Source of the DNA: Macrostomum lignano | Lineage: Eukaryota | DNA length: 64,000 nucleotides | Reading direction: 5' to 3' | NCBI GenBank assembly: GCA_002269645.1 | Contig: NIVC01000150.1 | Span: 62,001 to 126,000, forward strand | Shown here: piece after piece, positions 5,083 to 48,902 of the stretch | How the letters are laid out: each line of letters opens with the position of its first letter | How positions within the stretch are numbered: position 1 is the first letter of the stretch | Notes under the pieces: model-generated | Database searches by the model: none | What the model was told of the DNA's origin: nothing | Seen by the model: the letters and a program-made list of their open reading frames with translations, nothing else | Made by a program: the position numbers and the translations under genes

Positions 5083-7197
5083 CGCGTGGTGCAAGTTGCG
5101 TCACTCAAAAGTCAATACTGCTGAGCTAGAATTTTATACTGCGCACTCTTAAAGGTGGCGATTTTTTATGTTGTTGATAAAATATATCTATACATATAAA
5201 AATCAAAACTCTGTCTGTCTGTCTGTGTGTCTGTGGACATATATATATATAAAGTTTGCGAGTTAATGCAGGAATATGATAATATATTACTGCATAAATG
5301 TATATATGTCGCCGAACTGCTGTCGCCAAATACTGCCGCCGAGTCCAAGCTGTCGCCGAATTAACTGGTTCTCTAGCTAGGCTTCCCCTATGTATTGTCG
5401 CCGAAGTGACTGCATGGTAGCCCTACATGTAATTTAAGCCATTGATCTCTATATATCCATATCCATGCACCTAGCTTGATCCTAACCTCGAATTTATAAC
5501 CCCAAAATAAGTGTGGGGATAATTGCACCTGTGCTTTTCTGAAAAAAAAACAATGAATAGTAATTTTTACAGGAAAAAGTCACTTCGCTTCAACTCTTCC
5601 GCTCTGCAAAGCTTCAACTTGCTCTGGCACCGAAATGTCTAGCGTCTCACGCGGCTTCCCAATATTAGGGCTGCAGTGCATTATAAGAATATTTACTCTA
5701 GGTTCCTCTTAAAGCAGTAAAAACCCCGAATTTCAGACAAAATTGGTTTAAAAGTTATTAGATTTTTTATTTTATTAGCACCAGAACATTCTTAATCTTT
5801 GGTATTATTTTAATTTAGACGTTTGTGAAAAATTATCGTGCAGGGATCACTTGACGATAACAACTTAAGTCGAAGATTTAATATTTTATATTAGTACTTT
5901 AGGCATTCATTTAAAGTGTAGTCTTATTAAATAGGATAAAGTGGTAAAAATATAAGTTACTTAATATAACATTATTCACTCGCTAGCTTCTTAATTTATT
6001 ATTGCACTTCGGTGACTTGCTTTTGTCATGACAATGACAACGCATATTTTATCAACCTTTTCACAATTGTTGGTATGCCTAGCTACTCATTCTAGGGCCT
6101 AGCTAGTGTACTAAAGTGCTCTAGACCTAATGAGACAATGTTACAGTGTAGTGCTTAGCCTTGAGATTCTAGAAAAAAATTAACCTAGTAATTTTGCTTT
6201 TATTTTAATCTTGGAGCTCCTATTCTCACTGTTTTAATGCATTGATTTGATAATGAATTGTATCTTCCAATTATAAAAATCAAGATATCTATATAAATAA
6301 CCTATAAAGTATTAAAGTAATTAGAAGACAGGCAAATTATTATTTTATTTTAAAAGAAGATGCTTATAGAAGTCATTAGCAACAATTCTCTAAAGAGTTT
6401 ATAAATAAATATTATATCAAAGAGGGAACACCAAATTTGAATATTTTCTTTTAAAAGTAGCAAAGCTTAGTATCAGTGAGTATTTAATACTTGCATTAAA
6501 TTATACATATATTAAAAAACTACACTTTTCTTTTTAATATACAGCTTTTCAAGACATATATTATGATAACAAGTGTTAAAAAATTTATTTATTCTACAAA
6601 AAGCTTTTTTCTATAATTATAGTTAAAGATATATAGCATAACTTAATATTATATAAATGTTATACATATAAAATAAGCCTAGGATACATCAAATTGTACA
6701 AAATCAAGAAACTATATCTATCTACTGTTTTTCTGTTCAAATTGTACCAGCATGGCAATATACATAGAAAACATTAATTATTGTTAAACCTATTTCATAT
6801 CATCAACTCAATTTTTATCAAAATCACAAGCATTTTAACTTATACATTGCAGAAAAGTATACAATATATGGAATAAATAGGAATATATATTTCAAGTTGT
6901 TACTGCACCTCTAAACCAGAATATTTTGATATAAAAATTAATTTGCATATGCATTAGCTTATTTTAGATTGATAGACAGGTGCAGATTTTTAATTTCATA
7001 TAATTTGATGCATTTTCATATTGAAAACCTAGCCAATCTAGCTAGGTGACAAGGTAGTCAAGGTCAGGTTATGTTGCAACACTGATACAAAAAATAAATA
7101 AAGAGTTTTAAATAGTCAAGGCCAAAACTAAAGAGAGAGAAGATTTTAATTGAATGCAGAGCAAAGCTTTGTTGCAAAAAGGCTCACTGTGTACAAC

Positions 7198-7835
7198 ACT
7201 ACTATGGACTGGCAGATGGCGCGATTTTGCGAAGGTCCGTCGGGCTGATGTCGGCCTCTAGCACCGCGGCAAGGTGCTCCCTCGGGGTGTACACCCGGGG
7301 TGTACCTCCAGCGGGGTGGGTGTCCAGCGAGTGTACCTCCAGCGGGGTGGGCCTCCCGCGAGTGTACATCCGGCCGGCTGGGCGTCCAGCGAGTGTACCT
7401 TCAGCGCATGGGCCTCCCTCGGGTGTACATCCGGCGGGGGGATTCCCGCCCCTCCCACCAATGTCGTGTGCACGCGGTTAGTGTAGGAAGGAAACCCCCG
7501 ATGCTGACGCAGCCCTGTACACTGAGCAACCGGCCCCCCATGCGGGGGACAGAGAGCAGCCCCTGTAGCAGGAGGGGTAGTGCGTGGAGAGCCGCCATCC
7601 CCCTGTAGCAAGGGACAGATAACAGGCGGCCCCCTGTAGCAGTATGAGGTGGGGTACAAAGAGACACGGGGTGCTGGGACAGAGAGTGCGTGGAGGCACC
7701 CTGCGCTGCCCTGGCATGTCGCAGCACGCGGCGTGGACAGAGAGGGAGTGTGAGTCACACGGAGGGACAGAGAGCTTCCCCAGGCCGGGGTGGTAGAGGG
7801 ACAGACCGGCGGTGAGTGATAGAGAGCCCCCCAGG
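7198..7835 (+). repeat. Left terminal inverted repeat of the virus
   Basis: Reverse complement of 17058-17691 and 18453-19089; contains GTGTAC-core ~31-bp subrepeats and recurring GGGACAGA and CCCCTGTAGCA motifs. Confidence 0.95.
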
Positions 7836-7910
7836 CTGCAGAGGGACAGACAGGCCGCGAGCAACGTGTTAATGCAACCATAAATAGAAGCAGTGTACAA
7901 AACCCTCTGT

Positions 7911-8690
7911 ATGGAGAACATGGAAGAGGGTATAACTGATAACCCCTATTTCAGCAACGAGAGCGTGCGCGCCAGATTACCCCTCATTGAAAGATTGTTA
8001 TCAGACACTAGGAAAAGAATCGAGGGATTGACCGCAAAGGAGCGCTTAGAATTCACGTATCTAGCCCGGCTGGCATTCGTAACTGAAGTAAACATTGAGG
8101 AGAGAGAGGTGGCGTTGACTTGGGAGGAAGCAGAAGAAGCGATAAAAACCCGGTCCTGTATGGTCACAGCCAATCTATGGAGTGCGGCAATACACCTCAA
8201 TGACACGAGGGGGTTAATTGACACAGAGTTTGTTAGACAAGTTCACACACGCGTGTGCAGAGGACTGCTCCCGAATGCAGGATCGTATAGAATTAAGCAC
8301 GCCAAGCCAGCAGGCGCGAGTATGTATTACAGTGCCCCAGAAAATATTGAACGGCAGCTGGTAAAATTAACTAGAGACATAAAAGAGCCACAAATCTTGC
8401 GTGATGCAGTAGTGACAGGAGCATATTTCCTAGAAAAGTTTCTCACCATACACCCCTTTAGCGACGGCAATGGTAGAACTGCTAGGTTGTTATTATCAAA
8501 GTTGATCAACCGGATTCTGCCAGAACCCGTATCATTTGCATACGCAAATAGAGACACATATCTCAACTGTCTTTACGAAGCGCGCAGCAGCAACCGGGGG
8601 CTCCTAGCGGCGTATTTACTTTTATCAATTGAGAGAACCGTTCTACAGTGGAGGGAATGGTTGGAAATCTGTTCAGACGGCAGCCTATAA
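7911..8690 (+). CDS. Fic-domain (AMPylase-type) protein
   Basis: Canonical Fic motif HPFSDGNGRTARLL, upstream G.YR flap region (AGSYRIKHA) and a helix resembling the autoinhibitory segment (EVNIEE). First ATG is 7911; the ORF track starts at GTG 7893. Confidence 0.92.
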   Translation: MENMEEGITDNPYFSNESVRARLPLIERLLSDTRKRIEGLTAKERLEFTYLARLAFVTEVNIEEREVALTWEEAEEAIKTRSCMVTANLWSAAIHLNDTRGLIDTEFVRQVHTRVCRGLLPNAGSYRIKHAKPAGASMYYSAPENIERQLVKLTRDIKEPQILRDAVVTGAYFLEKFLTIHPFSDGNGRTARLLLSKLINRILPEPVSFAYANRDTYLNCLYEARSSNRGLLAAYLLLSIERTVLQWREWLEICSDGSL

Positions 8691-8724
8691 ATAAATAAAA
8701 TTGGTATTTCTCAACAATATCGAA

Positions 8725-9078
8725 ATGTACTGGCAATCGGAAATAGTGTACACCCACGTTGACAACGCAGTGCTGGAAGTGGGATATTGGGACCCAAACA
8801 AACCGCGTTTCCGCATCCACTGTCAAAACTGTAGCTGTCCAGGAGCCGTGTTTAGTCGAGCACAATGGCATCGAATGAAATTTCTGGGCACTAGCTGCAC
8901 AGATTACGATCTCGGAGGCGGCGCATCTATCAAAGTTATCGACGGGAAGCGCCTGTACGTAAAAGGAGACTGCGAATTTCACCTGTCAGACAAAATACTT
9001 TGTGCAGTTGAAAAGAATAGAGTCGACAATTTCTTCCACTATTTCTTTCTCGACGAATCTGACGAGTCAGAGGAATGA
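8725..9078 (+). CDS. Viral hypothetical protein (~117 aa, acidic tail; weak resemblance to PC4/whirly-like ssDNA-binding folds)
   Basis: ATG 40 nt after a TATAAATA motif; stop overlaps the next start (ATGA). The fold guess from LEVGY...FSRAQWHRM is inference only. Confidence 0.65.
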   Translation: MYWQSEIVYTHVDNAVLEVGYWDPNKPRFRIHCQNCSCPGAVFSRAQWHRMKFLGTSCTDYDLGGGASIKVIDGKRLYVKGDCEFHLSDKILCAVEKNRVDNFFHYFFLDESDESEE

Positions 9079-9590
9079 GCTGGATTTCTCGAGACTACCC
9101 GCTTTTATCGAGCAAAGAAAGGGCAGAGTACGAGACCCTGAAAAAGTCCACAGACTGGTTATGCATTTGTCACGGCAAACCAATTCCCGAACGATTAGTC
9201 ACCTTTAATGTCGAGGTAGACGAAATTGGGCAAGGGCCTTACAGCACCCAAGAATATACAGATGCCCGAATTGACTACTACTTTAGAGACAAGATGCATT
9301 TCAAAGCCAATCTTCAAAGAATGGAGCAGATAATTGCCCCAATATTACAAGAGGATCATCGTGAGAAAATACGGTACCGGAATCACCAGCCGATTGCTCC
9401 CTCGTGGACAGAACACCAAAGGATTTGGCGACCTAAACACAGTAGACCAGTGCTAGCGAAGTTGACTATCAACCCTCACTGCAGCTGCATTAACGACACG
9501 CCTCAAACCCCTCGACCAGAAGATCGAAACAAAAGGTTTATTTTTTCCGGATTTCCAACACCGGAAAGTGTCGTTAAAGAAGCACTATAA
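9075..9590 (+). CDS. Viral hypothetical protein (171 aa)
   Basis: Clean ATG-to-stop ORF coupled to the previous gene by an ATGA overlap; has CICH and HCSC motifs; no recognisable family. Confidence 0.65.
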   Translation: MSWISRDYPLLSSKERAEYETLKKSTDWLCICHGKPIPERLVTFNVEVDEIGQGPYSTQEYTDARIDYYFRDKMHFKANLQRMEQIIAPILQEDHREKIRYRNHQPIAPSWTEHQRIWRPKHSRPVLAKLTINPHCSCINDTPQTPRPEDRNKRFIFSGFPTPESVVKEAL

Positions 9591-9681
9591 CAAAAACGCC
9601 CAGCCACCCCACCCTCCGCCCAAGGGTATATAAGGAGGCGCTCAGGGTGTGAGACCCACTCTCAGCAACAGCAGCAGCAAC

Positions 9682-10362
9682 ATGGATACCGTTCAAGACT
9701 ACAATAGTGTTAGGATCGACCTATTCTCTCTCAAGTCGAGAGGTCCAAGCTACAACGGAACCGAGACGTACGACATTGAGTACGACGAACAGGGCCCTCT
9801 CTATCTTGCCAATGCGACGCCCGTACTGATTGTCAAGGGTGTGAGAACCGACAATGAAGGCCGCGAATTCATCATTCTTTCCCAAAAGCACTTGGAGAGC
9901 TGCATACCAGAAGCGTTCAATTCCGTGTGTCACCAGCTCTCTATCCAAGGAATGGCGCTATTGGGGTACAACCCCACTTTTGGCTGCGACAGCGCTGCAT
10001 TCGGATTGGCTCACGACTTTAAAATGTACGACAAGAGCGGCAAGTTGTGCACCGACTACAAGAACAAGACGGGCTACTATAGAGTACTGTTCGCCCTAGA
10101 CACGGCGGTGATTCACGACTCGGTTCTAACCGCGGTACCAAAAATTCAACAACTGCAATTCATAGAAGCTCCCAAGCAGGCGTTTGACCGCTGCTACTGG
10201 ATTCCACCGTTAAAAATCAAGGTAGGACGCAAGCGCGGAGCTGGTGGAGCTGAGCGGAAACAAAAGCAACCGAAAAAACCGCTTGCAGAACGTCGTGTGC
10301 GTAAACAGGGTGTTTTGCGCAAGGTGGAACCACCTACCGAACTTGGACTGGGCGCGCGCTAG
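9682..10362 (+). CDS. Viral hypothetical protein with beta-rich core (possible OB-fold SSB) and basic NLS-like C-terminus
   Basis: GC-box-like tract and TATATAA (9627) precede ATG 9682. The FKMYD..G...YRVLF...KIQQLQF pattern is reminiscent of viral SSBs (inference). The 3' end overlaps the TBP-like frame. Confidence 0.65.
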   Translation: MDTVQDYNSVRIDLFSLKSRGPSYNGTETYDIEYDEQGPLYLANATPVLIVKGVRTDNEGREFIILSQKHLESCIPEAFNSVCHQLSIQGMALLGYNPTFGCDSAAFGLAHDFKMYDKSGKLCTDYKNKTGYYRVLFALDTAVIHDSVLTAVPKIQQLQFIEAPKQAFDRCYWIPPLKIKVGRKRGAGGAERKQKQPKKPLAERRVRKQGVLRKVEPPTELGLGAR

Positions 10363-10762
10363 AACGTTTCATAGACCCCGGGCATTGTACAACCTGAGGA
10401 TCGGAAAGTGTACAATAAACTTTTTCAAACGTTCATTATCTGCCATTGTTTTTGGTTGCCAATCAACCAACGATGTGCTGCGTCTTTTTGCTCAATGTAA
10501 ACCAAACTCTGTTGTTATCACTACCGGTACTTATCGTGCAGAAGTTAATGTTAAGCCAAACTTTTTCCGCCTTGCCAACTCGAGCTCGCGCTGGGTTGAG
10601 TGGGAGAGTGAGGTATTCAATGGGCTTGTAATAAAGTCCCCATTCCGCAAGGCCAAGTGCCTGCTGTGCGGAAAGAATGGTCGGTTAGTGTTCCTAGGAA
10701 TACGAAACTATGACGAACTGTGTAAAATGTACGACCACGTGACTGCTATTCTGCAACTCTAA
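10244..10762 (+). CDS. TATA-binding-protein (TBP)-like two-repeat protein; no in-frame ATG start
   Basis: LQNVVCVN matches TBP LQNIVSTVN; IVFGCQSTND matches VCTGAKSEE; WESEVFNGLVIK...CLLCGKNGRLVFLGIRNYDELCKMYDHVTAIL matches YEPELFPGLIYR...[31 protein letters not shown]. The frame is open from 10226 with no early ATG. Confidence 0.72.
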   Translation: MELSGNKSNRKNRLQNVVCVNRVFCARWNHLPNLDWARARTFHRPRALYNLRIGKCTINFFKRSLSAIVFGCQSTNDVLRLFAQCKPNSVVITTGTYRAEVNVKPNFFRLANSSSRWVEWESEVFNGLVIKSPFRKAKCLLCGKNGRLVFLGIRNYDELCKMYDHVTAILQL

Positions 10763-10800
10763 TTATGCTTTGCTTATAAATAAACAAAATATGCACATGT

Positions 10801-11190
10801 ATGCACGCAATGCTTACCACCTTAATAATGACAAACGGAATTTCTCGTCTTTGTTCTTGCCGTCGCGAGCTAGAGGAGCTCGGTGACGCGCGACCACATC
10901 GAAGGAGGGCCATTATTAGGGGAGCCGATAATGAGTTGATGCAGTGTCTGTGCGAGTTAAGTCACAATGTACTCAAGGGCAATATCGATCTATCCCCTAG
11001 ACAGTTTGCAAGGTTGAAACGTTATAGAGAAGCCCTGCATGACATGGCCGACAAAAAACTGTCTATAAATAGGAAGAAGAATATGATACTATCGGACCCT
11101 CAAGTTGGAGGATTCCTACCAATTCTCGCCAAGATTGCTGCACCGTTAATCACTGGACTGTTTGGTGGTCTGCTAGGACAACGACGTTGA
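10801..11190 (+). CDS. Putative virion core protein, adenovirus pX(mu)-like C-terminus
   Basis: Basic body plus QVGG|FLPILAKIAAPLITGLFGGLL, similar to adenovirus pX (xRGG|ILPLLIPLIAAAIG) after a protease site; TATAAATA at 10775. Confidence 0.75.
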   Translation: MHAMLTTLIMTNGISRLCSCRRELEELGDARPHRRRAIIRGADNELMQCLCELSHNVLKGNIDLSPRQFARLKRYREALHDMADKKLSINRKKNMILSDPQVGGFLPILAKIAAPLITGLFGGLLGQRR

Positions 11191-11192
11191 AA

Positions 11193-11774
11193 ATGGACAA
11201 GTACGTTGTGGTCCCCGAGGAGGAATTCAATCAGCTTAGACAGGGTACTCCGCGAGAAATTGCCCCAAAATCGGAGTACGAAAAACTTGTAGAGTACAAT
11301 GCAAAGCTACAGACCCAATTGGCTAAAGTAAAACCCCAAAAGACGACAAAGCAGCTATTTTCTGATAGGCAACAACGTATATGGAATATACTAACAGAAA
11401 AGCACCCCAGCCTAAATTACAACCAATCGTGGGAAGTCGTTTTTGATGGTGAAACTTGGGGTGGCAGCAACGTTTTTGATCTTCTACAAGCCGTCACCAC
11501 CAACACTAATAATCACCCGAAATATTCGACCGCTTTCTGGGCTCTGCTAGACAAGGCCCGTATACCAATGTCTATGCTCGGTCGGAAACAGCTCCCTGTG
11601 GAGGAAAAGAAGGTTGACCATATGGTTGGTACCGATGATTACCGCGATGAATATGAGCACACAATTGCGACAGACACCCGCGATTTAACGACCACGCGCA
11701 ACAAAGGTGTAAATGCTATGCCCAACTTGTGGATCAAGGTGCCGGGATGGGTAAATATCACGATTACCAACTAA
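11193..11774 (+). CDS. Conserved Polinton/adintovirus hypothetical protein
   Basis: MDKYVVVP start and ...EVVFDGE...GSNVFDLL...P...F...L....IP pattern that I recognise from Polinton accessory ORFs; tightly coupled to the upstream stop. Confidence 0.6.
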   Translation: MDKYVVVPEEEFNQLRQGTPREIAPKSEYEKLVEYNAKLQTQLAKVKPQKTTKQLFSDRQQRIWNILTEKHPSLNYNQSWEVVFDGETWGGSNVFDLLQAVTTNTNNHPKYSTAFWALLDKARIPMSMLGRKQLPVEEKKVDHMVGTDDYRDEYEHTIATDTRDLTTTRNKGVNAMPNLWIKVPGWVNITITN

Positions 11775-11946
11775 GACCGCCCCGGAACCGAAAATACGAT
11801 ACTCTTTATAAATAGAACCCTAATCCATACATAACCGCGCCCGGCGGTCATGGGCGCAGCAGCCGCCGCATCAAAGCTTTGTGTAGACAACTCCCCAGCC
11901 GACATTACGTGCAACTATTCATGCTGTGCATCCACACTTGTTGTCA

Positions 11947-13026
11947 ATGAGGGCTCTAACCGCTCTTCGTCGAGTTTACGAACAAGGAGCCGCCGCTTTT
12001 TCAAATGCTGCCCGTGTCTATCAGGAGGCCAAACGTCTGGCGCCAAACCTGACAAGACGCCAAACCAGGGAATGGCTAGAAACCCAACCGAGTTACACCC
12101 GTCACCGGAGAGTCAACAGGACATTTAAAACGGGAAAAGTAATGTCGGGAGGATTCATGGAAACTCTACAAGCCGATTTGATGGACATGTCGCGATACAA
12201 ACGTTGGAATGACGGACATAAATATATACTAGTTGTTATTGATGTGCTTAGTAAGCAGGCTTTTTGTAGGGCAATTAAACTAAAGAGTGATACCCCCGCA
12301 GCGTTTGAGTCAATGTTGGCGAATGATTTCCCTGCCCGCCCCCTTTACCTGCACGTGGATCGGGGTACCGAGTTTTATAATCAGCGAATGCGCCGCATAC
12401 TAAAAGACAATAATGTTAAAATGTACAGCACCAACTCTGTGTACAAGGCAAACATGGCCGAGAGGCTGATTAGAACTCTTCGAAAGCGTCTGGCTCGCTA
12501 CTTTGAGCACAACAACACGTGGCGTTGGGTTGACTACTTACCCAATTTGGTAGGTAATTACAACAACACGACGCATTCTACTATTGAGATGAAACCGTCA
12601 AGTGTAGGGTTCCACAATCAGAAGCGTGTGTGGGAAAAGCTCTACCCGGATCAGCAAAAAGACGACCCCGTATATAAAAAGGGGGATTTTGTGAGAATTT
12701 CGAAATCTCGCCGGGCATTCGACAAGGAGGCGTACGACATGTATAGTGAGGAGGTGTACATTATATCCAAAGTTTGTCCTGGACCCCCACATTTTTATCG
12801 TATTTCTGATTTGTCTGGTGAAGTGATTGAGGGACGGTTTTACTACAATGAACTGTCCAAATCTACCCGACCCGAGCGTTTTGTAATCAATAAAGTTTTG
12901 CGTAGAAACGTGTTAATAAATGGTGTTGCGCACCATTACGTTAGCTGGCGCGGTTATCCCGACACTTTTAATTCATTTGTACCTGTAAATGAAGTTATAA
13001 ATATACGTCAACGTAATAATAACTAA
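11947..13026 (+). CDS. Retroviral-like DDE integrase with C-terminal chromodomain (Polinton c-INT)
   Basis: LQADLMDM...KYILVVIDVLSK (D), LHVDRGTEF (D), MAERLIRTL (E); C-terminal VSWRGYPDTFNSFV chromo-like motif; consistent with the 6-bp TSD. Confidence 0.95.
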   Translation: MRALTALRRVYEQGAAAFSNAARVYQEAKRLAPNLTRRQTREWLETQPSYTRHRRVNRTFKTGKVMSGGFMETLQADLMDMSRYKRWNDGHKYILVVIDVLSKQAFCRAIKLKSDTPAAFESMLANDFPARPLYLHVDRGTEFYNQRMRRILKDNNVKMYSTNSVYKANMAERLIRTLRKRLARYFEHNNTWRWVDYLPNLVGNYNNTTHSTIEMKPSSVGFHNQKRVWEKLYPDQQKDDPVYKKGDFVRISKSRRAFDKEAYDMYSEEVYIISKVCPGPPHFYRISDLSGEVIEGRFYYNELSKSTRPERFVINKVLRRNVLINGVAHHYVSWRGYPDTFNSFVPVNEVINIRQRNNN

Positions 13027-13029
13027 TGC

Positions 13030-14168
13030 ATGGCTACCATGCATCTCTTTCTGCCTAGCAATGCGTGCCCCGAGCACTATCCCGAAAATAATCCGGCTCA
13101 TTATTTTATTAATTTACCGGACACTCTCCACTTTCCGAATCATGAGGTTTGCCTCGAACGGATCTACTTTACCAAAGAATTTGAATCTTTCAAAAAATCT
13201 ATACCGATCACCATTCGCGAACAGGAGGGCCTCTTGACGGCTTCGTCGTTTGCAAACCTTTGTCTCGCAGCGGGTCTGAAAACCCCTGAAGAATGTATTT
13301 CCGGCTTTCTAAACGGTATCCGATACGTTGAAGGGGATAATAAGAAAATTGTCTTTTTAAGAACATCCCCAACCGCCTTTATGATTGTGAATACTTCAAA
13401 ATCCACTGTCGGCATCAAATTCCCGGATACCCTACCCAAGGTGTTTAAACTAGTCGCCGGCTTCGAGTCTAATGAGGATCTACCTACTGAACTCGTATTA
13501 CACGCGGGGTGTGCAGCCTCCATCACCGCAGTTGTTGAGGAACCGACTGTGCAGTCAATGGACCATGCTCCAATAATAAGACAAGTTACTAGCGCAGCGT
13601 CTGATCAAATCTATTTTATGCAGGGTGGATACTATAGTACACCTAAAAGAATGGTGGAGGAACTCAACAATTTAATTTGGAAACGGATCAAAGATCTCAT
13701 AGCGGCTCCAGCACCTAGAACGGACTTTTTCGGATACAGCGAAGTTACGAATAGGTGTTATTACATTGGCTCGATGGATTACATGTTTGGGCTGGGGCGC
13801 TTGACCGGCATGCTTGGTTTCCCAGAGCATGATTATACAACCCCATTTTTCGGTATATCGGACTTTGGGCAGCCACATCAATGGAATTAACCGGTGGAAT
13901 ACAAACAATGTACATCTATTCGAGCATAGTCGATTCTGTTATTGTAGGAGACGTTAAAGTTCCTCTGTTGGGAGCTATACCGATGGATCCCAAAGTTCAG
14001 GGCGGTCGCGAGTACTACGAGTTTGTCAATCCGGCATATCTACCGCTGGTTAAGCACCCATTCAAAACTATTGAAGTACAAATTAACGATGATATGGGCA
14101 GGGATATGACAAAAGTAATGAGGGGCAAGACCGTCTTGAGCGTTAACATCCGCGAAAAGAAGCTATAA
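13030..14168 (+). CDS. Penton / minor capsid protein, split by a 1-nt frameshift near 13846-13850
   Basis: N-terminus FLPSN...YPENN...F.INLP..L...EVCL and C-terminus MYIYSSIV...VGDVKVPLL...Y.PL...FKTIEVQI are the two halves of the Polinton penton. Adding one T to the T5 run at 13846-13850 joins ORFs 13030-13890 and 13881-14168. Confidence 0.85.
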
Positions 14169-14211
14169 ATAAACAGCACAGCCTCAGTAAACTATATCCT
14201 AGTGCTTAATC

Positions 14212-14556
14212 ATGCCTTCTATTCTGATTGGTGGAGCTTTGCCTGTTTTCGCGGGCGCCCAGAGGGGCAACGGTTTGTTTGGAAGCATTGCCCGCTTCGC
14301 GCTGCCAATTCTAAAGAGTTTTGGTAAAAACGTTCTCCGTCATGGTACTAGAGCCCTAGCAACTACTGTTAACGATAGCCTCGAGCAAGGAGGCAATTTG
14401 AAGGAGTCTGTCCTGCGCAATTCTGTTCAGGCTGCCAAGGACGCCTTTAAAGACACGGTTACCCAAAGGGGTAGCGGACGAAGAAGAAAAAAGGCTCCGA
14501 AGCGTCTCAATTCAGACATTTTCAGCACTATAAATAAAAAGCCCCGCTTCAATTAG
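14212..14556 (+). CDS. Small protease-processed virion protein (adenovirus pVI/pVII-like)
   Basis: LIGG|A, QRGNG and QRGSG motifs; amphipathic LFGSIARFALPILKSFGK helix; basic RRRKK tail; lies directly before the MCP. Confidence 0.72.
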   Translation: MPSILIGGALPVFAGAQRGNGLFGSIARFALPILKSFGKNVLRHGTRALATTVNDSLEQGGNLKESVLRNSVQAAKDAFKDTVTQRGSGRRRKKAPKRLNSDIFSTINKKPRFN

Positions 14557-14585
14557 ATTCGCCGAATCGAGTCTGTCTACTAAAC

Positions 14586-15869
14586 ATGTCCGAGTGTCTG
14601 TGTACAAAGTCCGAGTTTGAGCTCTTTGCCCCTCGAGCCCACCAGATTGCCGCTGTAGGTTCAACTACTGAAGAAATCCACCCGGTTGCCAGCGTCGAAA
14701 ATGCGAGTGTGGTTGAGTTTAGAATTGTGGGCGGCGAGACGTTTGTCGATCTTAATGACATTGATCTCGAGATTAAAGGTTGTATTAAAAGAGCTAATGG
14801 AGCCGATTTGGCGGCGGATTCAAACGTGGCGCCAATCAATTACCTCTTGGAGACCATGTTCAAAAACGTGTCTCTTTCCATAAATGGTACACATATCGAG
14901 TCTAGCAACAACAACCATGCCTACAAGGCGTACATTCGTACATGCTTGAGTTATGGGTCTGATTCAAAGTCTAACCAACTGCGGATGATGGGCTACGCTA
15001 AAGACGCTGGGGGTCAAATGGCTGCGGTTGGAAATCCTGGCTTTGTAACTCGCAAGGCGATGGCTGCCGGTTCTCGAACATTTCACCTGTATGGCCCTCT
15101 TAGTCTCGACTTTTTTGTCACCAACGATCGTATGCTGCTACCCTACACTGATATGGTGGTTACGCTCACTCTGCAAAATTCGGGATTCGTTGTAGAGAAT
15201 CACGCCGAAGGGGTTGATGCAAAGTTGGTTCTTCAAAGTGCAAAATTACACGTTCGTCGGGTAAAGGCTAACCCCCAACTGGCCTTGGAGATTGAAGAAC
15301 AGCTGGCAACTCAGAATGCAGTCTACCCCATCGAGCGCCTCGTTGTACACAACACCTCTGTCGCTGTAGGAGTTCGCGACGTGTCAATCAATAATATTTT
15401 CCCGGAGCAGAAGCCTAAACTTGTCATTATGGGGATGGTAAATAGTGCCGCATATAACGGGGTGGCTACCCATAATCCGTTCAATTTCGAGCCATTTGGG
15501 GCTGACAGTGTGGCCCTGTACAAGGACGGTGTCAGTCTGTGCGGTCAACCATTCACTCCAAGGTTCGCTGCCCAAAACTATGCTCGCGAATACGCCATGC
15601 TGTTTAAGAGCCTAGGGAAAATGAATCGCGATTTGGACATTGACCTGTCATATTCGGATTATCGCGCCGGTTACTGCTTATTTGCGTGGAATCTAATGCC
15701 CGATATGGAACTGGGTGGACATAGCATGCCTCGCGAGAGAGGGAATCTGACCCTACAGATAAAGTTTTCTGCAGCCCTACCTGCCGGGATTAACGTTTTG
15801 GTGTTTGGTTACTTTGACAACGCGGTGCAAATCACTAGAGGCCGCCAGCCCATTCTGGACTACGTATGA
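14586..15869 (+). CDS. Double jelly-roll major capsid protein (hexon/PY)
   Basis: 427 aa; EC..KSEFELF N-terminus, YPIER, NPFNF and GYCLFAWNL.PD motifs typical of Polinton MCPs; position between core protein and protease. Confidence 0.93.
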   Translation: MSECLCTKSEFELFAPRAHQIAAVGSTTEEIHPVASVENASVVEFRIVGGETFVDLNDIDLEIKGCIKRANGADLAADSNVAPINYLLETMFKNVSLSINGTHIESSNNNHAYKAYIRTCLSYGSDSKSNQLRMMGYAKDAGGQMAAVGNPGFVTRKAMAAGSRTFHLYGPLSLDFFVTNDRMLLPYTDMVVTLTLQNSGFVVENHAEGVDAKLVLQSAKLHVRRVKANPQLALEIEEQLATQNAVYPIERLVVHNTSVAVGVRDVSINNIFPEQKPKLVIMGMVNSAAYNGVATHNPFNFEPFGADSVALYKDGVSLCGQPFTPRFAAQNYAREYAMLFKSLGKMNRDLDIDLSYSDYRAGYCLFAWNLMPDMELGGHSMPRERGNLTLQIKFSAALPAGINVLVFGYFDNAVQITRGRQPILDYV

Positions 15870-16303
15870 ACACGTTGGAAATTTTGGAGTGTTTAAAACT
15901 ACCTGTGGAAGTGCACGTTTGCCCTCTCGACAGAATTCCTGCACCTGTTTACCCTGCTGCATATGTAATTAATTTTGACACGGGTAATCTGCCAGGCACC
16001 CACTGGGGACTGATTTGCCTACACGATGATAAGAGTGTGACATTTTTTGACCCTCTGTGTATTGAACCCGTGCCGGAATTGCTCTCGGCTTGGATCTCGA
16101 AGCATGTACATTCACCTGTTGCTATGAATCGCCACCCTGTTCAACACCCTCTAAGTGTAGCGTGTGGGCCGCATGTGATTTTTGTGGCCGAAAAGCACTT
16201 TTTAGAGGGGTTGTCGATTGAAAAGATTTTAAGGGAATGTTACTCTACCAATCTGCTTGAAAATGATTTGATGGTTCGAAAACATGTTCTACAAATAAAA
16301 TAG
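15866..16303 (+). CDS. Adenain/Ulp1-type maturation cysteine protease
   Basis: INFD...PGTHW (His), FFDP (Asp), QHPLSVACG (Gln/Cys) in catalytic order. Confidence 0.93.
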   Translation: MNTLEILECLKLPVEVHVCPLDRIPAPVYPAAYVINFDTGNLPGTHWGLICLHDDKSVTFFDPLCIEPVPELLSAWISKHVHSPVAMNRHPVQHPLSVACGPHVIFVAEKHFLEGLSIEKILRECYSTNLLENDLMVRKHVLQIK

Positions 16304-16337
16304 TTTTTAATATTTGGAGTGTCAACTCGCCCTGAAA

Positions 16338-16966
16338 ATGTACCAAACAATTGATCCTGACGCTCTAAAGTTTGCTCCAAATACTTCGGCGATTTTTGCT
16401 GGTGTTAACCAGAGCGGAAAAACAACTCTTGTTAAAGAATTGCTGCGAAACGAGTTTTTTCAGGACCCTAAGCCTGTTCGCGTTGATTGGTTTGGGCACT
16501 ATCCAGACCCGGAACTGTTTGAATTACCGTACCCTGTCAATTTTCGCTCGTCTACATTTAACCCTGAAACCTATGTTCCCGCTCCGAATATTCTATCGTT
16601 GTCGATGATCAAATGCAAGCCATGGAAAAAAACGCTGCTTTTACCGCATTTTTCACTCGCAAAGTCAGCCATGTGGGATTCCGGCTTTGGTACCTTGTAC
16701 AAAACCTGTTTGCCAAGGGCAAGGAGCACCGCACTCAATCCCTTAACGCAAACTACCTTGTATTGTTCCGCAATGTACGGGACGTTAGTACAGTCGCCCA
16801 TATTGCAAAGCAGCTTGTCCCCGCTAACCCAAAAAGTTTTGTTCAAATGTACGAAGACGCCACTAGGGAGCCCTACTCCTACTTGATTGTTAATTGCTTG
16901 CAGAACGCATCTGTTCGCTACTATGCTAATGTGTTGGGGCGCTACCCCGTAGTTTATGCTAAATAA
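16338..16966 (+). pseudogene. A32/FtsK-like packaging ATPase, copy 1, with a 1-bp deletion at ~16596
   Basis: Otherwise matches copy 2, but reads ATTCTATCGTT instead of ATTCTATTCGTT, splitting the ORF at Walker B; either a real lesion or a sequencing error. Confidence 0.85.
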
Positions 16967-17057
16967 AACACTGTTGGAGAGCTTTGCTCTGTTTGCCGGA
17001 TGGCCTGAACCTGAAACAACTAAAATACGTGTTTTTTCTTTTCAAGTCCTCTACTGC

Positions 17058-17691
17058 CCTGGGGGGAGCTCTCTATCACTCACCGCCGGTCTGTCCCTCT
17101 ACCACCCCGGCCTGGGGAAGCTCTCTGTCCCTCCGTGTGACTCACACTCCCTCTCTGTCCACGCCGCGTGCTGCGACATGCCAGGGCAGCGCAGGGTGCC
17201 TCCACGCACTCTCTGTCCCAGCACCCCGTGTCTCTTTGTACCCCACCTCATACTGCTACAGGGGGCCGCCTGTTATCTGTCCCTTGCTACAGGGGGATGG
17301 CGGCTCTCCACGCACTACCCCTCCTGCTACAGGGGCTGCTCTCTGTCCCCCGCATGGGGGGCCGGTTGCTCAGTGTACAGGGCTGCGTCAGCATCGGGGG
17401 TTTCCTTCCTACACTAACCGCGTGCACACGACATTGGTGGGAGGGGCGGGAATCCCCCCGCCGGATGTACACCCCGAGGGAGGCCCATGCGCTGAAGGTA
17501 CACTCGCTGGACGCCCAGCCGGCCGGATGTACACTCGCGGGAGGCCCACCCCGCTGGAGGTACACTCGCAGGACACCCACCCCGCTGGAGGTACACCCCG
17601 GGTGTACACCCCGAGGGAGCACCTTGCCGCGGTGCTAGAGGCCGACATCAGCCCGACGGACCTTCGCAAAATCGCGCCATCTGCCAGTCCA
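17058..17691 (-). repeat. Internal right TIR copy (terminus identical to the left TIR but missing the last 7 nt)
   Basis: Ends ...cgcaaaatcgcgccatctgccagtcca and joins directly to a copy of 16297 onward. Confidence 0.92.
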
Positions 17692-17731
17692 AAATAGTTT
17701 TTAATATTTGGAGTGTCAACTCGCCCTGAAA

Positions 17732-18361
17732 ATGTACCAAACAATTGATCCTGACGCTCTAAAGTTTGCTCCAAATACTTCGGCGATTTTTGCTGGTGTT
17801 AACCAGAGCGGAAAAACAACTCTTGTTAAAGAATTGCTGCGAAACGAGTTTTTTCAGGACCCTAAGCCTGTTCGCGTTGATTGGTTTGGGCACTATCCAG
17901 ACCCGGAACTGTTTGAATTACCGTACCCTGTCAATTTTCGCTCGTCTACATTTAACCCTGAAACCTATGTTCCCGCTCCGAATATTCTATTCGTTGTCGA
18001 TGATCAAATGCAAGCCATGGAAAAAAACGCTGCTTTTACCGCATTTTTCACTCGCAAAGTCAGCCATGTGGGATTCCGGCTTTGGTACCTTGTACAAAAC
18101 CTGTTTGCCAAGGGCAAGGAGCACCGCACTCAATCCCTTAACGCAAACTACCTTGTATTGTTCCGCAATGTACGGGACGTTAGTACAGTCGCCCATATTG
18201 CAAAGCAGCTTGTCCCCGCTAACCCAAAAAGTTTTGTTCAAATGTACGAAGACGCCACTAGGGAGCCCTACTCCTACTTGATTGTTAATTGCTTGCAGAA
18301 CGCATCTGTTCGCTACTATGCTAATGTGTTGGGGCGCTACCCCGTAGTTTATGCTAAATAA
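17732..18361 (+). CDS. A32/FtsK-like DNA packaging ATPase, intact copy 2
   Basis: Walker A GVNQSGKT, Walker B LFVVDD, and QNLF..GK..RT.SLNANYLVLFRN.RD A32 motif. Confidence 0.94.
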   Translation: MYQTIDPDALKFAPNTSAIFAGVNQSGKTTLVKELLRNEFFQDPKPVRVDWFGHYPDPELFELPYPVNFRSSTFNPETYVPAPNILFVVDDQMQAMEKNAAFTAFFTRKVSHVGFRLWYLVQNLFAKGKEHRTQSLNANYLVLFRNVRDVSTVAHIAKQLVPANPKSFVQMYEDATREPYSYLIVNCLQNASVRYYANVLGRYPVVYAK

Positions 18362-18452
18362 AACACTGTTGGAGAGCTTTGCTCTGTTTGCCGGATGGCC
18401 TGAACCTGAAACAACTAAAATACGTGTTTTTTCTTTTCAAGTCCTCTACTGC

Positions 18453-19089
18453 CCTGGGGGAGCTCTCTATCACTCACCGCCGGTCTGTCCCTCTACCACC
18501 CCGGCCTGGGGAAGCTCTCTGTCCCTCCGTGTGACTCACACTCCCTCTCTGTCCACGCCGCGTGCTGCGACATGCCAGGGCAGCGCAGGGTGCCTCCACG
18601 CACTCTCTGTCCCAGCACCCCGTGTCTCTTTGTACCCCACCTCATACTGCTACAGGGGGCCGCCTGTTATCTGTCCCTTGCTACAGGGGGATGGCGGCTC
18701 TCCACGCACTACCCCTCCTGCTACAGGGGCTGCTCTCTGTCCCCCGCATGGGGGCCGGTTGCTCAGTGTACAGGGCTGCGTCAGCATCGGGGGTTTCCTT
18801 CCTACACTAACCGCGTGCACACGACATTGGTGGGAGGGGCGGGAATCCCCCCGCCGGATGTACACCCCGAGGGAGGCCCATGCGCTGAAGGTACACTCGC
18901 TGGACGCCCAGCCGGCCGGATGTACACTCGCGGGAGGCCCACCCCGCTGGAGGTACACTCGCTGGACACCCACCCCGCTGGAGGTACACCCCGGGTGTAC
19001 ACCCCGAGGGAGCACCTTGCCGCGGTGCTAGAGGCCGACATCAGCCCACCTCACCTCCAAAATCAAGCCATCTGCCGTTGCTTAGTAGT
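18453..19089 (-). repeat. Outer right TIR with variant terminal ~45 bp, abutting the TSD
   Basis: Matches the left TIR up to GGGCTGATGTCGGC; spacers between conserved terminal blocks differ; ends TAGTAGT|TACAAC. Confidence 0.93.
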
Positions 19090-19210
19090 TACAACTATGT
19101 TGCACCAGCTAGGCAACTATGGCAGCTAATGAATATGACTATGGGAATATAGTGATTTACCCCAGTTTCAAGTGAAATACATCTGTACCCCTCGTTTCAG
19201 AAAGCAAGTA

Positions 19211-19651
19211 ATGTCGACCACTCCAGGCCAGTCCAACTCCGTTTCAATCGAGCAAACAGAGGAGGCCAAATTAAAACAAAAATATCCGAATTTGAATCGC
19301 AAAAGCATTGGCAGCTCCGTGCTGCACAAGCGGCTGAACAATAAAGGTCAGAAATATTTTGACAGCGGCGACTACAACATGGCCAAGGCTAAGGTAGTCG
19401 GCGCTCACCGGGCTCCCACCAGGGGCTCCGATCTGCTGGACACCGCCACAGGCGACACCATGGCAACGCCGGAAAGTGTGCCAGCTGTACGCAAGAAATC
19501 TCTAGTTGGCGGCCTTGACCCGCTGCTGCCGCCTCAGCAATTGCTGCAACCGCAGCAGCTGCAGCAGCAGCAGCACCGGAAGCCGTCCATCGCTTGCACA
19601 GAAGACGACCCCATGGCTATTGGCCGGCCAATTGTGCAATCAGATCAGTGA
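19211..19651 (+). CDS. ENSA: Endosulfine-alpha / ARPP-19 family PP2A-B55 inhibitor
   Basis: KQKYPNL...LHKRL...QKYFDSGDYNMAKAK Greatwall-site motif; splice acceptor TTTCAG at 19195-19200 just upstream. Confidence 0.92.
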   Translation: MSTTPGQSNSVSIEQTEEAKLKQKYPNLNRKSIGSSVLHKRLNNKGQKYFDSGDYNMAKAKVVGAHRAPTRGSDLLDTATGDTMATPESVPAVRKKSLVGGLDPLLPPQQLLQPQQLQQQQHRKPSIACTEDDPMAIGRPIVQSDQ

Positions 19652-19842
19652 AGAATTTTCTCTTCTTCATTGACTTGACAAGCAGCTGTGCGAACTGCCC
19701 GATTGCTGGGAGCCCTGTGTGTTGATGGAGCAAGCAAAAAAGCTATACATATCTTCTTTTTCTGTGGCAATTCGTAAAAAGACTGCATTTTTACAAGAGA
19801 TAATAAAATAAATAGCATATAGGCGCTAAATTGACTGCCAAA

Positions 19843-20512
19843 CCTGACCCTATCCCTGACCCTTATCAGTCCTGACCCTATCCCTGACCCTTGTCAGTCC
19901 TGACCCTATCCCTGACCCTATCCCTGACCCTTACCAGTCCTGACCCTATCCCTGACCCTATCCCTGACCCTTATCAGTCCTGACCCTTATCAGTCCTGAC
20001 CCTTATCAGTCCTGACCCTATCCCTGACCCTTATCAGTCCTGACCCTATCCCTGACCCTTATCAGTCCTGACCCTATCCCTGACCCTTATCAGTCCTGAC
20101 CCTATCCCTGACCCTTATCAGTCCTGACCCTATCCCTAACCCTTATCAGTCCTGACCCTATCCCTGACCCTATCCCTGACCCTTATCAGTCCTGACCCTA
20201 TCCCTGACCCTATCCCTGACCCTTATCAGTCCTGACCCTATCCCTAACCCTTATCAGTCCTGACCCTATCCCTGACCCTATCCCTGACCCTTATCAGTCC
20301 TGACCCTATCCCTGACCCTATCCCTGACCCTATCCCTGATCCTATCCCTGACCCTATCCCTGACCCTTTCCCTGATCTTATCCCTGACCCTATCCCTGAC
20401 CCTATCCTTGACCCTATTCCCTGACCCTATCCCTGACCTATCCCTGACCCTATCCCTGACCTATCCCTGACCCTATCCCCGACCCTATCCCCGACCCTAT
20501 CCTTGACCCTGA
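19843..20512. repeat. CCTGACCCTATC / CCTGACCCTTATCAGT tandem array
   Basis: Mixed 12- and 16-bp units visible directly. Confidence 0.9.
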
Positions 20513-42400: not shown

Positions 42401-45400
42401 GTTTTTCATTTCAATTTCTTAGGTTGCTGATTGGACAGGAAATATCTATCAAGACAAGCGCTACCAGAGTAAGTTAAAATTTTAATCATTTTACTAACTA
42501 AGATTATCCAAAGTATGGCTATGACATAATTGGATAATTACCTCAATCAACAGACCGCTACATGTCGCATCTGGCCAACTCTGGCGGCACCCAGTACACC
42601 TACTATCACGAGGAAGACGAGAGCAGCTTTGTACTAGTTGACACACAGAAGACTCAGCCTAGACTGAACCCTAGGCAGAGATTCCAGCGCATTAACAATG
42701 CCCAGCGGCAGAGGCGCGAACGGCAGCGCTTCAGCATGGCCGGCGCTACTGGCTTGGCCAATCAGCAGTTGTCCAAGGCGCAACTGCGAATGAAGCAGCA
42801 ATACCAGAAGAAATGGCTGAAGCAGACGCGCCAGAATCAGGAGTACCAGCGCCGGCCGCAGCGGGCCGTTAATCGCGAATCGTCCGTGCAAGTGCAAGAG
42901 TCCTGGAAAGTGCTAGAAGAGCTGGACTTTGTTCGCTTGTCTAAACTGTCCGTGCCGTTGAACATTGTCACCTCTGGCGAAGACTTGTACGCCTGCGGAG
43001 AGATGGAATACTATGATAAGACCTACGACAGGTGAGACTGTAGTGAGGCGTCTAATTAAGGTATAGATAAAGGCAGCTGAATCCAATGAGTGACTCATAG
43101 TGAGATAGTGGAATTCACCGAGTGACTGTCACTGATAGCTGAGTTCACAGAGGGACTGTCACTAATAGCTGAGTCCACTGAGTGACTGTCACTGATATCT
43201 GAGTTCACTGAGTGACTGTCACTGATAGCTGAGTTCACTGAGTGACTGTCACTGATAGCTGAGTCCACTGAGTGACTGTCACTGATAGCTGAGTCCACTG
43301 AGTGACTGTCACTGATAGCTAAGTCCACTGAGTGACTGTCACTGATAGCTGAGTCCACTGAGTGACTTGTCACTGATAGCTGAGTTCACAGAGGGACTGT
43401 CACTAATAGCTGAGTCCACTGAGTGACTGTCACTGCCCGTCGAACGTTTCACCCGGAATTTTTTCCGGAATTTTGTGATCCGGGCCCGATTTTTAATTGA
43501 TTTCCGGGTGAAGGCCCGGATCAGCTTTTTTGGCCCGGAACAGCCCCTTGTTCCGGAAAAAAATCCGGAAATATGATCCGGAAAATTTTCGGGAAAAGGA
43601 AAGCTGTTCCGGTCTGATTTTCTGGAATTTTTCACCTGGAACACTATGGAATTCTGGGTGTAGACCCGAATTTCAGTAGTGTTCCGGGTGAAAATGTTCC
43701 GGGTGAGATTTCGGGAATTGAGTCGGAATTCTCCAGTGATCCGGACCAACTGATCCGGAAAATTCACCTGGATCAGCTCCCTTGACCCGAATTTCAGCCA
43801 AGTTCCGGGCGAAGCTGATCCGGGAAAATTTCGGGACTTGAGTCGGAATTCCCTAGTGATCCGGACCAACTGATCCGGAAAATTCACCCGGATCAGCTCC
43901 CTTGACCCGAATTTCAGCCAAGTTCCGGGCGAAGCTGATCCGGGAAAATTTCGGGACTTGAGTCGGAATTCCCTAGTGATCCGGACCAAATAATCCGGAA
44001 AATTCACCTGGATCAGCTCCCTTGACCCGAATTTCAGCCAAGTTCCGGGCGAAGCTGATCCGGGAAAATTTCGGGACCGCTGAATACAGACCCCAGCAAA
44101 TGGCTATCCCATCAGGCAATCCCTGGCATCCATTTGGTCAACGGCGCTAATTCCTCTTGGAAAGCGAGGGGTAATAAAGCCTCGAAATTGCAGTGTGAAT
44201 TGATCTGCTTTTTGGCGGCTCTGTAGCGTCCGTAATGTGAGGGTGTGCCCATTCTCCGTACAGGTGACAATTGAAAAATTGTTGCGCCCTGTTTGTGTGC
44301 GAGAGGTTTGACTTCCACTGGCATGTAGTCTATCACAGCTGCTTAGTGTGTCAACGGGCTGAATGATTCTATCGTCATATTTGACGCTTAGAAGCATAAA
44401 ATCAGCCAACCATATTGTTTGGCACAGCTGGGTGTCTAGACGGAGACTGTGGCATGGTTCCAAATAGCTCTAACTGGCCCAGTATGCAAAGCAGCTTTCC
44501 TATTAAGATAGACGCTAATCCGATTTTTGTCGGTACATGCTTCCAGTGGTTTGTCTAAGGCGTTTGCAGTTGCACCAGCCGTGAGCAGATCACGTCTAGA
44601 GAGTCTATACGGACTACTATGGTCGGTAACCATATCGTGTGGCTCAAGGCAGCTGATAAGCTGACCTGCGATGGATAATCAATCCTCGCTTCTGTTGTGG
44701 CTCAAGGCAGCTGATAAGCTGACCTGCGATGGATAATCAATCCTCGCTTCTGTTGTGGCTTAAGGCAGCTGATAAGCTGACCTGCGAGGGGCAATAAAGC
44801 CTCGCTTTGATGAGACAACTTATCTGCTTTTCGGCGGCTCTGTAGCGTCTGTAATGTGAGGCTGAGCCCATCCTCCGTACAGGTGACAATTGAAAAATTG
44901 TTTCGCCCTGTTTGTGTGCGAGAGGTTTGACTTCCACTGGCATGTAGTCTATCACAGCTGCTTAGTGTGTCAACGGGCTGAATGATTCTATCGTCATATT
45001 TGACGCTTAGAAGCATAAAATCAGCCAACCATATTGTTTGGCACAGCTGGGTGTCTAGACGGAGACTGTGGCATAGTTCCAAATAGCTCTAACTGGCCCA
45101 GTATGCAAAGCAGCTTTCCTATTAAGATAGACGCTAATCCGATTTTTGTCGGTACATGCTTCATTGGTTTGTCTAAGGCGTTTGCAGTTGCACCAGCCGT
45201 GAGCAGATCACGTTGTCACGGCTGCTAACAAGAGTACCGGATCCCGGTATTCCGCCACTCTCTGGAAGGGGCCTTTGGATAGAAAGGCCCAAGCGATTGA
45301 AGCGACTGCTTTGGCGCGTGTGCCATCGCAGCAACCGCAGCCGTCACGATGCCCGTCATGCACCACAATGATGGATCAGATTCGGGCCCAAGGCGAAGCC

Positions 45401-48400: not shown

Positions 48401-48902
48401 GGAGGTGCAGTTCATAAACATCAAAGCTCTGAACGAGTTCGACCCGCGCGTGCCGGGCGCCGTTGACTGGCGCAGCAAGATGGACTCGCAGCGGGGAGCC
48501 GTGCTGGCCGCCGAGCTTAAGAACAACGCCTTCAAGCTGGCCAAGTGGACGGTCTGTTCGCTGTTGGCCGGCTCAGACCAGCTCAAGCTGGGCTACGTGT
48601 CCCGCGTGAACCCCAAGGACTCCAGCAAGCACGTGATCCTGGGCACCCAGCAGTTCAAGCCGAACGAGTTCGCCTCCCAGATCAATCTGTCCATGGAGAA
48701 CTGCTGGGGCATTTTCAAGTGCTTGGTGAACACCCTGATGGACAGGCCCAACGGCAAGTACCTGGTGTTGAAGGATCCCAACAAGCAGATGATTCGGCTG
48801 TACGACATTCCTAACAACTCCTTCGAGTCGGACGACGAGGACGAAGAAGGCGACGACGGCCAAGACGAGGACGACGAGCGCGACGGCGACGGCAGCGATT
48901 GA
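36461..48902 (+). CDS. EIF3D: Eukaryotic translation initiation factor 3 subunit D (5 coding exons)
   Basis: Exons 36461-36601, 42423-42468, 42554-43031, 47086-47617 and 48390-48902 join in frame. Motifs: [61 protein letters not shown]. Confidence 0.96.
38775..38848 (+). pseudogene. Short decayed 28S rRNA fragment (helix 69-71 region)
   Basis: GGTAAACGGCAGGAGTAACTATGAC...AGCTAAATGCCTCGCCAGCTAATCAGTG versus eukaryotic 28S GGTAAACGGCGGGAGTAACTATGACTCTCTTAAGGTAGCCAAATGCCTCGTCATCTAATTAGTG. Confidence 0.8.
39290..39930. repeat. CT-rich then GA-rich low-complexity tract
   Basis: Polypyrimidine 39290-39730 followed by polypurine 39790-39930. Confidence 0.8.
40185..40400. repeat. ~21-bp TTTGCGACTTACCTAATCCT array
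   Basis: Visible tandem units; GCGACTTA also occurs at 38715-38750 and 40510. Confidence 0.8.
43085..43435. repeat. 30-bp minisatellite, resumed at 46983-47030 after a transposon
   Basis: ACTGAGTGACTGTCACTGATAGCTGAGTCC units on both sides of the insertion. Confidence 0.9.
43436..46982. mobile_element. Non-autonomous DNA transposon with CCC termini and 2-bp TSD (CMC/EnSpm-like)
   Basis: TIR CCCGTCGAAC(G/T)TTTCACCCGGAATTT at both ends; TG duplicated; dense CCGGA subterminal repeats (120-bp units left, ~30-bp units right); no transposase ORF. Superfamily assignment is inference. Confidence 0.8.
45368..45726 (+). CDS. Possible small two-exon coiled-coil ORF inside the transposon
   Basis: GT-AG intron 45414-45529 joins ...[31 protein letters not shown] in frame; function unknown. 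Confidence 0.35.
47720..48260. repeat. 23-bp minisatellite filling EIF3D intron 4
   Basis: TCCTGAAGTTTTAGCTGTCTCAA units. Confidence 0.9.

Follow-up and report, generated by a model that had tools for sequence, protein, structure and literature searches.

An 11,892-bp Polinton/Maverick-type element without a DNA polymerase gene was identified at positions 7198-19089 of the window (the whole 64,000-nt stretch of Macrostomum lignano contig NIVC01000150.1 analysed here), where it is bounded by two copies of TACAAC. Its two tips, designated A (left) and B (right), are unequal, which is a real feature of the locus, and the element is probably a frozen recombinant. The best explanation, held at about even confidence, is that a polymerase-less Polinton integrated once and recently, having become an A-tip/B-tip recombinant before insertion, with its B tip most likely coming from a diverged sister or helper. 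The structural features of the locus are as follows.

7192-7197, + strand: target-site duplication, left copy (6 bp, same as 19090-19095)
7198-7241, + strand: left tip, type A, 44 nt, beginning with the trinucleotide repeat (ACT)2A (comparison of the ends)
7198-7832, + strand: left terminal inverted repeat, about 635 bp, containing a subterminal 31/62-bp repeat array at about 7296-7435
16297-16304, + strand: terminus look-alike site preceding the ATPase gene, on the donor side of the junction (6/8 in register with the terminus)
16297-17690, + strand: duplication unit 1, with an ATPase copy and an internal right-type repeat whose A tip lacks the last 7 nt (comparison of the units)
17691-17698, + strand: junction of the duplication units (1-nt common base, then internal-site sequence)
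18457-19089, - strand: outer right terminal inverted repeat (comparison of the repeats)
19048-19089, - strand: right tip, type B, 42 nt (comparison of the ends)
19090-19095, + strand: target-site duplication, right copy (same as 7192-7197)

The TACAAC 6-mer at 7192-7197 and 19090-19095 forms a single, perfect 6-bp target duplication around the whole structure (chance of a match at both flanks about 4e-4 by flank composition), and both outer ends adjoin it, as an earlier note on this DNA had recorded. The insertion is recent, with 1 substitution among its repeat and unit copies. Judging from the sequence, it likely lies upstream of an endosulfine (ENSA/ARPP19) gene at 19211-19651 (99% identity to a Macrostomum lignano protein, next best 55-59%), about 110 bp from the apparent splice acceptor and start of that gene, the expression of which could be affected. 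The element genes are all on one strand and were assigned as follows.

7911-8690, + strand: Fic-domain accessory ORF (Pfam PF02661, E 6.6e-14)
8725-10362, + strand: three ORFs of 117, 171 and 226 aa (no Pfam match above cut-off)
10226-10762, + strand: TBP-like open frame (no ATG near its start)
10801-11774, + strand: two conserved Polinton core-type ORFs of 129 and 193 aa (tblastn matches, same order in loci L001, L029 and L030)
11947-13026, + strand: retroviral-type integrase with C-terminal chromodomain (frame intact; Pfam rve E 1.9e-9)
13030-14168, + strand: probable minor capsid protein, split over two overlapping ORFs (identity suggested by position)
14212-14556, + strand: small basic core-type ORF, presumably PW-like by its position (position, tblastn)
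14586-15869, + strand: major capsid protein of Polinton type (11/11 matches full-length, one named F54H12.2-like)
15866-16303, + strand: probable maturation protease (position and His/Cys motif)
Within 16297-17690, + strand: ATPase copy 1, frame broken near 16,600 (in duplication unit 1)
17732-18361, + strand: packaging ATPase copy 2, A32-like, frame intact (12/24 matches carry Pfam PF04665)

PDB matches of the integrase are Ty3/foamy-type integrases, with HP1/CBX3 for the chromodomain, and 1,543 relatives were recovered at E<=1e-30. The candidate minor capsid gene lies between the integrase and major capsid genes and has tblastn matches at the same position in L029, L030 and L033; neither it nor the protease candidate gave a Pfam or PDB match. 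When the capsid relatives were compared with the Pfam double jelly-roll family, 1 of 10 aligned members matched (E 0.005). The TBP-like frame matched Pfam TBP at E 9.5e-5, just below the curated cut-off, with an Atlas score of 0.94 and 28 of 30 matches in TBP clusters; a TBP inside a Polinton may merit interest by itself. For the 226-aa ORF, considered as a candidate DNA-binding protein, the Atlas search gave no usable match. The Fic gene (AMPylase-type), with the motif HPFxDGNGR, sits directly inside the left repeat, and TATA/AATAAA-like words occur between several element genes. The broken frames of the element may partly reflect an imperfect consensus.

Scored against Polintons/Mavericks sensu stricto, the element has the rve integrase, the long terminal inverted repeats (with imperfect tips) and the 6-bp target duplication; capsid and ATPase are recognised by homology, and minor capsid and protease only by position and by tblastn to related loci. 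It departs from the strict definition in having no pPolB, which is definitional for Polintons in the available text of PMC5499653, and it would work like a non-autonomous Polinton. The longest of its 40 stop-to-stop frames of at least 90 aa has 443 aa, leaving no room for a polymerase gene, and Pfam profile scans of 13 element ORFs and 5 further frames gave no PolB family match; it is therefore a polymerase-less Polinton-type element. A PolB motif regex had no hit in the element but also none in 33 other loci, and hence came without a positive control. In the search of the window for a polymerase-bearing helper, the 16 selected frames outside the element and larger satellites matched host eIF3 subunits only.

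Both end strings were recovered as the earlier note had written them, the left from 7198 on the + strand and the right from 19089 downward on the - strand, and its statement that the inner ~590 bp match was likewise confirmed, with only 2 one-base homopolymer indels (7421, 7534) between left and right repeats. The outer 44 columns hold 12 differences (10 substitutions and 2 gaps; Fisher p 2e-13 for this concentration), leaving A and B 73% identical, or 27% apart. With 7 transversions, 3 transitions and 2 gaps, the tip differences are unlike the homopolymer errors elsewhere. Among all three repeats, one substitution is private to the internal copy (17570), and they otherwise differ outside the tips by homopolymer indels, which suggest an imperfect long-read consensus.

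Exact-match runs of 7, 10 and 7 are common to A and B, interleaved with 12 changes in 37 nt. The earlier note had read this as spacers replaced in blocks while motifs were kept. Similarity between the spacers does not exceed that of random sequences (p 0.51 and 0.23), which fits replacement, but for this one tip pair the matches do not cluster significantly into blocks (permutation p 0.08-0.38 over five statistics and two-state HMM p 0.071, overall 0.07-0.38). The block pattern is statistically indistinguishable from scattered differences, and the claim that it footprints recognition sites is unproven, though a recognition role of the common blocks for integrase and polymerase is plausible by analogy. 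The outer 7-nt trinucleotide repeat would fit both jump-back initiation and use as an integrase att site. The 10-nt block common to both tips (7211-7220, 19067-19076) presumably resembles a YY1-type/E-box host-factor motif core and lies where adenovirus ITRs carry protein-binding motifs.

Several other properties of the termini were recorded. The end motif (ACT)2A (7198-7204, 19083-19089) corresponds to the common Maverick motif (AGT)2 with the strands swapped. Subterminal 31/62-bp repeats at 7296-7435, 17460-17600 and 18853-18993 are rich in GTGTAC/GTACAC, a word found 8 times in 638 bp of repeat versus 10 times in 9,225 bp of body; it adjoins the left target duplication too, possibly by chance. 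Flip/flop hairpin termini of the parvovirus/poxvirus type were considered and rejected: neither tip folds above shuffles (z -0.58 to +1.27, six folds), so these are not flip/flop termini, and B is not the reverse complement of A. A compensatory stem between the spacers likewise gave no fold above shuffles. Local templating of the B-specific words was rejected, the longest matches in flank, element body and window being 6-8 nt, the same as for A words. No B-type donor and no other family copies or tip fragments were found elsewhere in the 64-kb window, and the block pattern or B-type tip had, as expected, no match in 185,579 prokaryotic genomes.

The internal repeat bears most directly on how the two tips came together. 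It belongs to a direct 1.39-kb duplication of ATPase gene and repeat (units 16297-17690 and 17691-19089). Apart from the tips, 1 substitution and 3 homopolymer indels separate the two units, so that only the tip is foreign; one of these indels disrupts the first ATPase frame. The internal copy (about 17063-17691) carries an A-type tip together with the inner flank of the right end, not that of the left. An A-tipped right end therefore existed, with A tips on both sides, which makes a fixed left/right asymmetry the weaker reading. The earlier note had called this copy left-type; the A tip is indeed present but not complete, since in place of its final 7 bases stand, in register, those of 16298-16304, which mismatch the A terminus at 2 positions. 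On the bottom strand, 16297-16304 and the 3' end of the A terminus can form an 8-nt duplex of 6 Watson-Crick pairs, 1 G-T pair and 1 mismatch, in which the final base is paired. Sites that pair as well as the junction number 61 of 16,946, with 29 of 8,493 at >=6/8 and 83 of 8,474 at >=5/7; the junction chance figure of 0.3-1% belongs to a statistic picked after the junction was seen.

Under the recombinant reading, the repeats of the family would be near-identical except at the tip, which would exist as two alleles, A and B. The termini, judging from family membership, would be protein-primed origins, and replication would proceed by protein-primed strand displacement driven in trans by the polymerase of a putative helper. 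As the simplest single event, a nascent strand may have started at a B-tipped right end and copied the repeat and the ATPase gene; at 16297-16304 its 3' end, a near copy of the first 8 bases, would have resembled a normal initiation product, and the strand could then have changed templates, taking the exposed 3' end of a genome with an A tip and copying that genome through to the left end. The element's own integrase would have inserted the resulting A...A+B molecule in a single step, needing little beyond the common outer 7 bp. Since this model needs B-tipped molecules otherwise about 99.9% identical to A, the tip would have been exchanged earlier with a diverged lineage, most likely by capture from a sister or helper through a crossover just inside the tip.

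Of the two options that the earlier note had offered, a recombinant integrated as one molecule is backed by the right-type internal repeat with an A tip, the in-register joint and the single target duplication. The other, alternative ends of the family, needs two tip alleles just as the recombinant does, and in its fixed A-left/B-right form it is argued against. Counting against the recombinant reading, the substitution at 17570 separates the internal from the left repeat instead of grouping both; the model puts these two on one molecule, and the change must therefore be a later mutation or an error. A further point against it is that it draws on a single locus.

The foremost rival is misassembly, which we consider unlikely: an assembly or polishing chimera would have created the duplication and/or imported the B tip from another locus of a multi-copy family. 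The host genome is recently duplicated and hard to assemble. All four one-base indels between the copies lie in homopolymer runs, typical of long-read consensus error, and near-identical repeats invite misjoins, as noted for virophage elements in the available text of PMC8547959. However, both tips adjoin window-unique flanks with the same 6-mer, whereas a foreign flank would be expected beside a misjoined end. Ten substitutions in 37 nt exceed consensus noise, overlap assemblers do not create 1-nt-homology junctions in register with a terminus, and even in a chimera the B tip would still be real sequence somewhere in the genome.

A constitutive asymmetry, with A on the left and B on the right like the U3/U5 att sites of retroviruses and with the internal A tip derived from panhandle conversion or from switching to the left repeat, seems somewhat less likely still. 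Retroviral integrases accept dissimilar ends, and U3 and U5 att sites share just a few terminal bases, so that an integrase accepting unlike ends is unsurprising; here the integrase used both tips in one insertion, and nothing else in the window shows a B left end or an A outer right end. An A tip on a right-flanked repeat nevertheless demands an extra conversion step, and panhandle replication is expected to homogenise the ends, as in adenovirus.

It is improbable that, after integration, a diverged integrated relative served as template for rewriting the outer right tip through ectopic gene conversion or repair, with the duplication as a separate replication-fork error. The sharp 44-nt foreign tract on an otherwise identical repeat does look like a short conversion tract, but merely 7 bp of homology are available on the outer side before unrelated flank, and two independent events would be needed in an insertion with 1 substitution among its copies. 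It is highly improbable that local error-prone synthesis at a damaged or protein-blocked end made the tip de novo, with no B allele involved: to leave runs of 7, 10 and 7 exact matches among 12 changes within 37 nt would take an unusual mutator, of a kind not described in the available text of the literature examined, even though the spacers are random-like and transversion-rich and local templates for B-specific words, as for A words, do not exceed 8 nt. Nesting of an A element within a B element was rejected, as it predicts B tips at both outer ends and an inner target duplication.

In protein sets, sister lineages at a fitting distance for a B-tip donor were found, with 80-81% identity for the capsid (3/11 matches), 80-83% for the ATPase (6/24) and 69-70% for the integrase (2 among the best 150); no relative above 83% was found. 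A capsid-profile scan of the prokaryotic genome collection gave 33 loci at 25-30% identity or below; none resembled the element at the DNA level, and the fetched stretches contained no pairs of long terminal repeats. L001, L002, L029, L030 and L033 hold animal-type Polinton gene blocks in symbiont or metagenome-assembled prokaryote records and are likely host contamination.

Another 27 of the 33 loci (L003-L028 and L032), all from one record set (CBDDTI01...), served as a loose control only. Left-end typing covered 17 distinct ends, 2 of them references; L013 was dropped (same DNA as L012) and 9 loci were untyped. In this unrelated multi-copy family, a pair of co-resident subfamilies whose capsid DNA is 84% identical shows 77% tip identity over 44 nt, close to the 73% between the A and B tips of the flatworm element. 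None of the 17 typed left ends was swapped relative to capsid type, and tip swapping is thus not routine in this control family. The record, labelled 'bacterium', contains integrase- and capsid-bearing elements of about 18 kb that form two main subfamilies, have short ends of the TG...CA type, carry endonuclease VII and zinc-finger genes and occur as tandem head-to-tail copies in L012; no long polymerase frame was seen in the two loci inspected. These loci are probably eukaryotic contamination and possibly an undescribed family.

With the animal Polintons/Mavericks (adintoviruses) the element shares long terminal inverted repeats (635 bp), a 6-bp target duplication, a short repeated end motif, an rve integrase with chromodomain, an F54H12.2-like capsid and an A32-like ATPase; it differs from them in lacking pPolB, in its one-strand genes and unequal tips, and in carrying Fic and TBP-like frames. 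According to the available text of PMC8097293, vertebrate Mavericks have repeats of 46-1,447 bp, intact lengths of 12.7-24.6 kb and three types of end motif, (AGT)2, (AG)3 and (AC)3A. The gene order integrase-minor capsid-PW-major capsid-protease equals the second module described there, whereas the element, at 11.9 kb including the 1.39-kb duplication, is shorter than intact vertebrate elements, and its end (ACT)2A falls outside the three types listed there, even though one type that begins with AC is known. For Pieris mannii and other insects, the available part of bioRxiv 10.1101/2025.02.07.637071 reports mobile polB-less polintons and leaves their route of mobilisation open. Like them, the flatworm element is repeat-flanked, apparently mobile and without polB; there, polB loss accompanies LINE/LTR cargo and close polB-bearing relatives are known, whereas no cargo was recognised here.

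Adenovirus offers a parallel to tip exchange. In HAdV-E4, recombination placed an acquired ITR motif on a near-identical genome (PMC6410123, available text), a case that shares with the flatworm element a linear protein-primed-type genome and exchange of the terminal tens of bases. The adenovirus origin has short conserved motifs within the first ~88 nt, and its terminal trinucleotide repeat serves jump-back initiation (PMC5175343, available text), to which the terminal trinucleotide repeat of the element correspondingly fits. In contrast to the flatworm element, whose unequal ends would have been frozen by integration, adenoviruses do not integrate, and the available texts of PMC6410123 and PMC5175343 do not describe a genome with unequal ends. 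Polisuvirus integrations of tandem and mosaic structure (bioRxiv 10.64898/2026.10.13.758929) and variant reads near the termini of a Mayetiola adintovirus (PMC8502044) were also found, each in partial text; the two reports share with the flatworm element tandem units, internal repeat copies and near-terminal variant reads, and the parts available mention neither two tip alleles on one insertion nor an in-register end-to-internal junction. Nematode Polintons exchange polymerases and keep their repeats (PMC10748475), and virophage elements regenerate repeats after truncation (PMC8547959), again in the texts as available. Repeat calling in PMC11131425 allowed, in its accessible part, at most 2% mismatch between repeats, so that unequal tips can pass such surveys unremarked.

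Each ingredient of the locus has precedent, adenovirus ITR recombination and polymerase-less Polintons being already known. No paper on unequal Polinton tips or on two discrete tip alleles per insertion was found in a search that mostly did not cover subscription papers and Repbase, and Macrostomum is not mentioned among the literature matches listed. Two tips 27% apart that both functioned in one integration amount to a natural mutagenesis of the end signal, and they are ready substrates for an integrase assay; as matters stand, this is a single locus in a single assembly. To our knowledge, Polinton replication and integration are known almost solely from sequence, and we know of no mapping of the minimal origin/att signal for either process. 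The in-register junction would be a rare trace of a replication intermediate, fitting a protein-primed, jump-back model. If the B tip proves to be that of a helper, it would explain the mobilisation of polymerase-less Polintons left open in the available text of bioRxiv 10.1101/2025.02.07.637071.

A broader reading is offered tentatively, and we consider it rather unlikely as a whole: a polymerase-less, capsid-encoding satellite of a diverged helper may take the ~44-nt origin tip of that helper as an exchangeable cassette. Origin alleles would then reassort on a common element body, the blocks common to A and B would be the minimal origin/att signal, and terminus-like nascent ends could prime at the origins of other genomes.

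No structured RNA was found in 6500-20000. Three exons encoding host eIF3 subunit D lie at 42538-48902 on the + strand (Pfam eIF-3_zeta), and the window is otherwise rich in minisatellites, with telomere-like arrays at 1-113 and 19843-20510.
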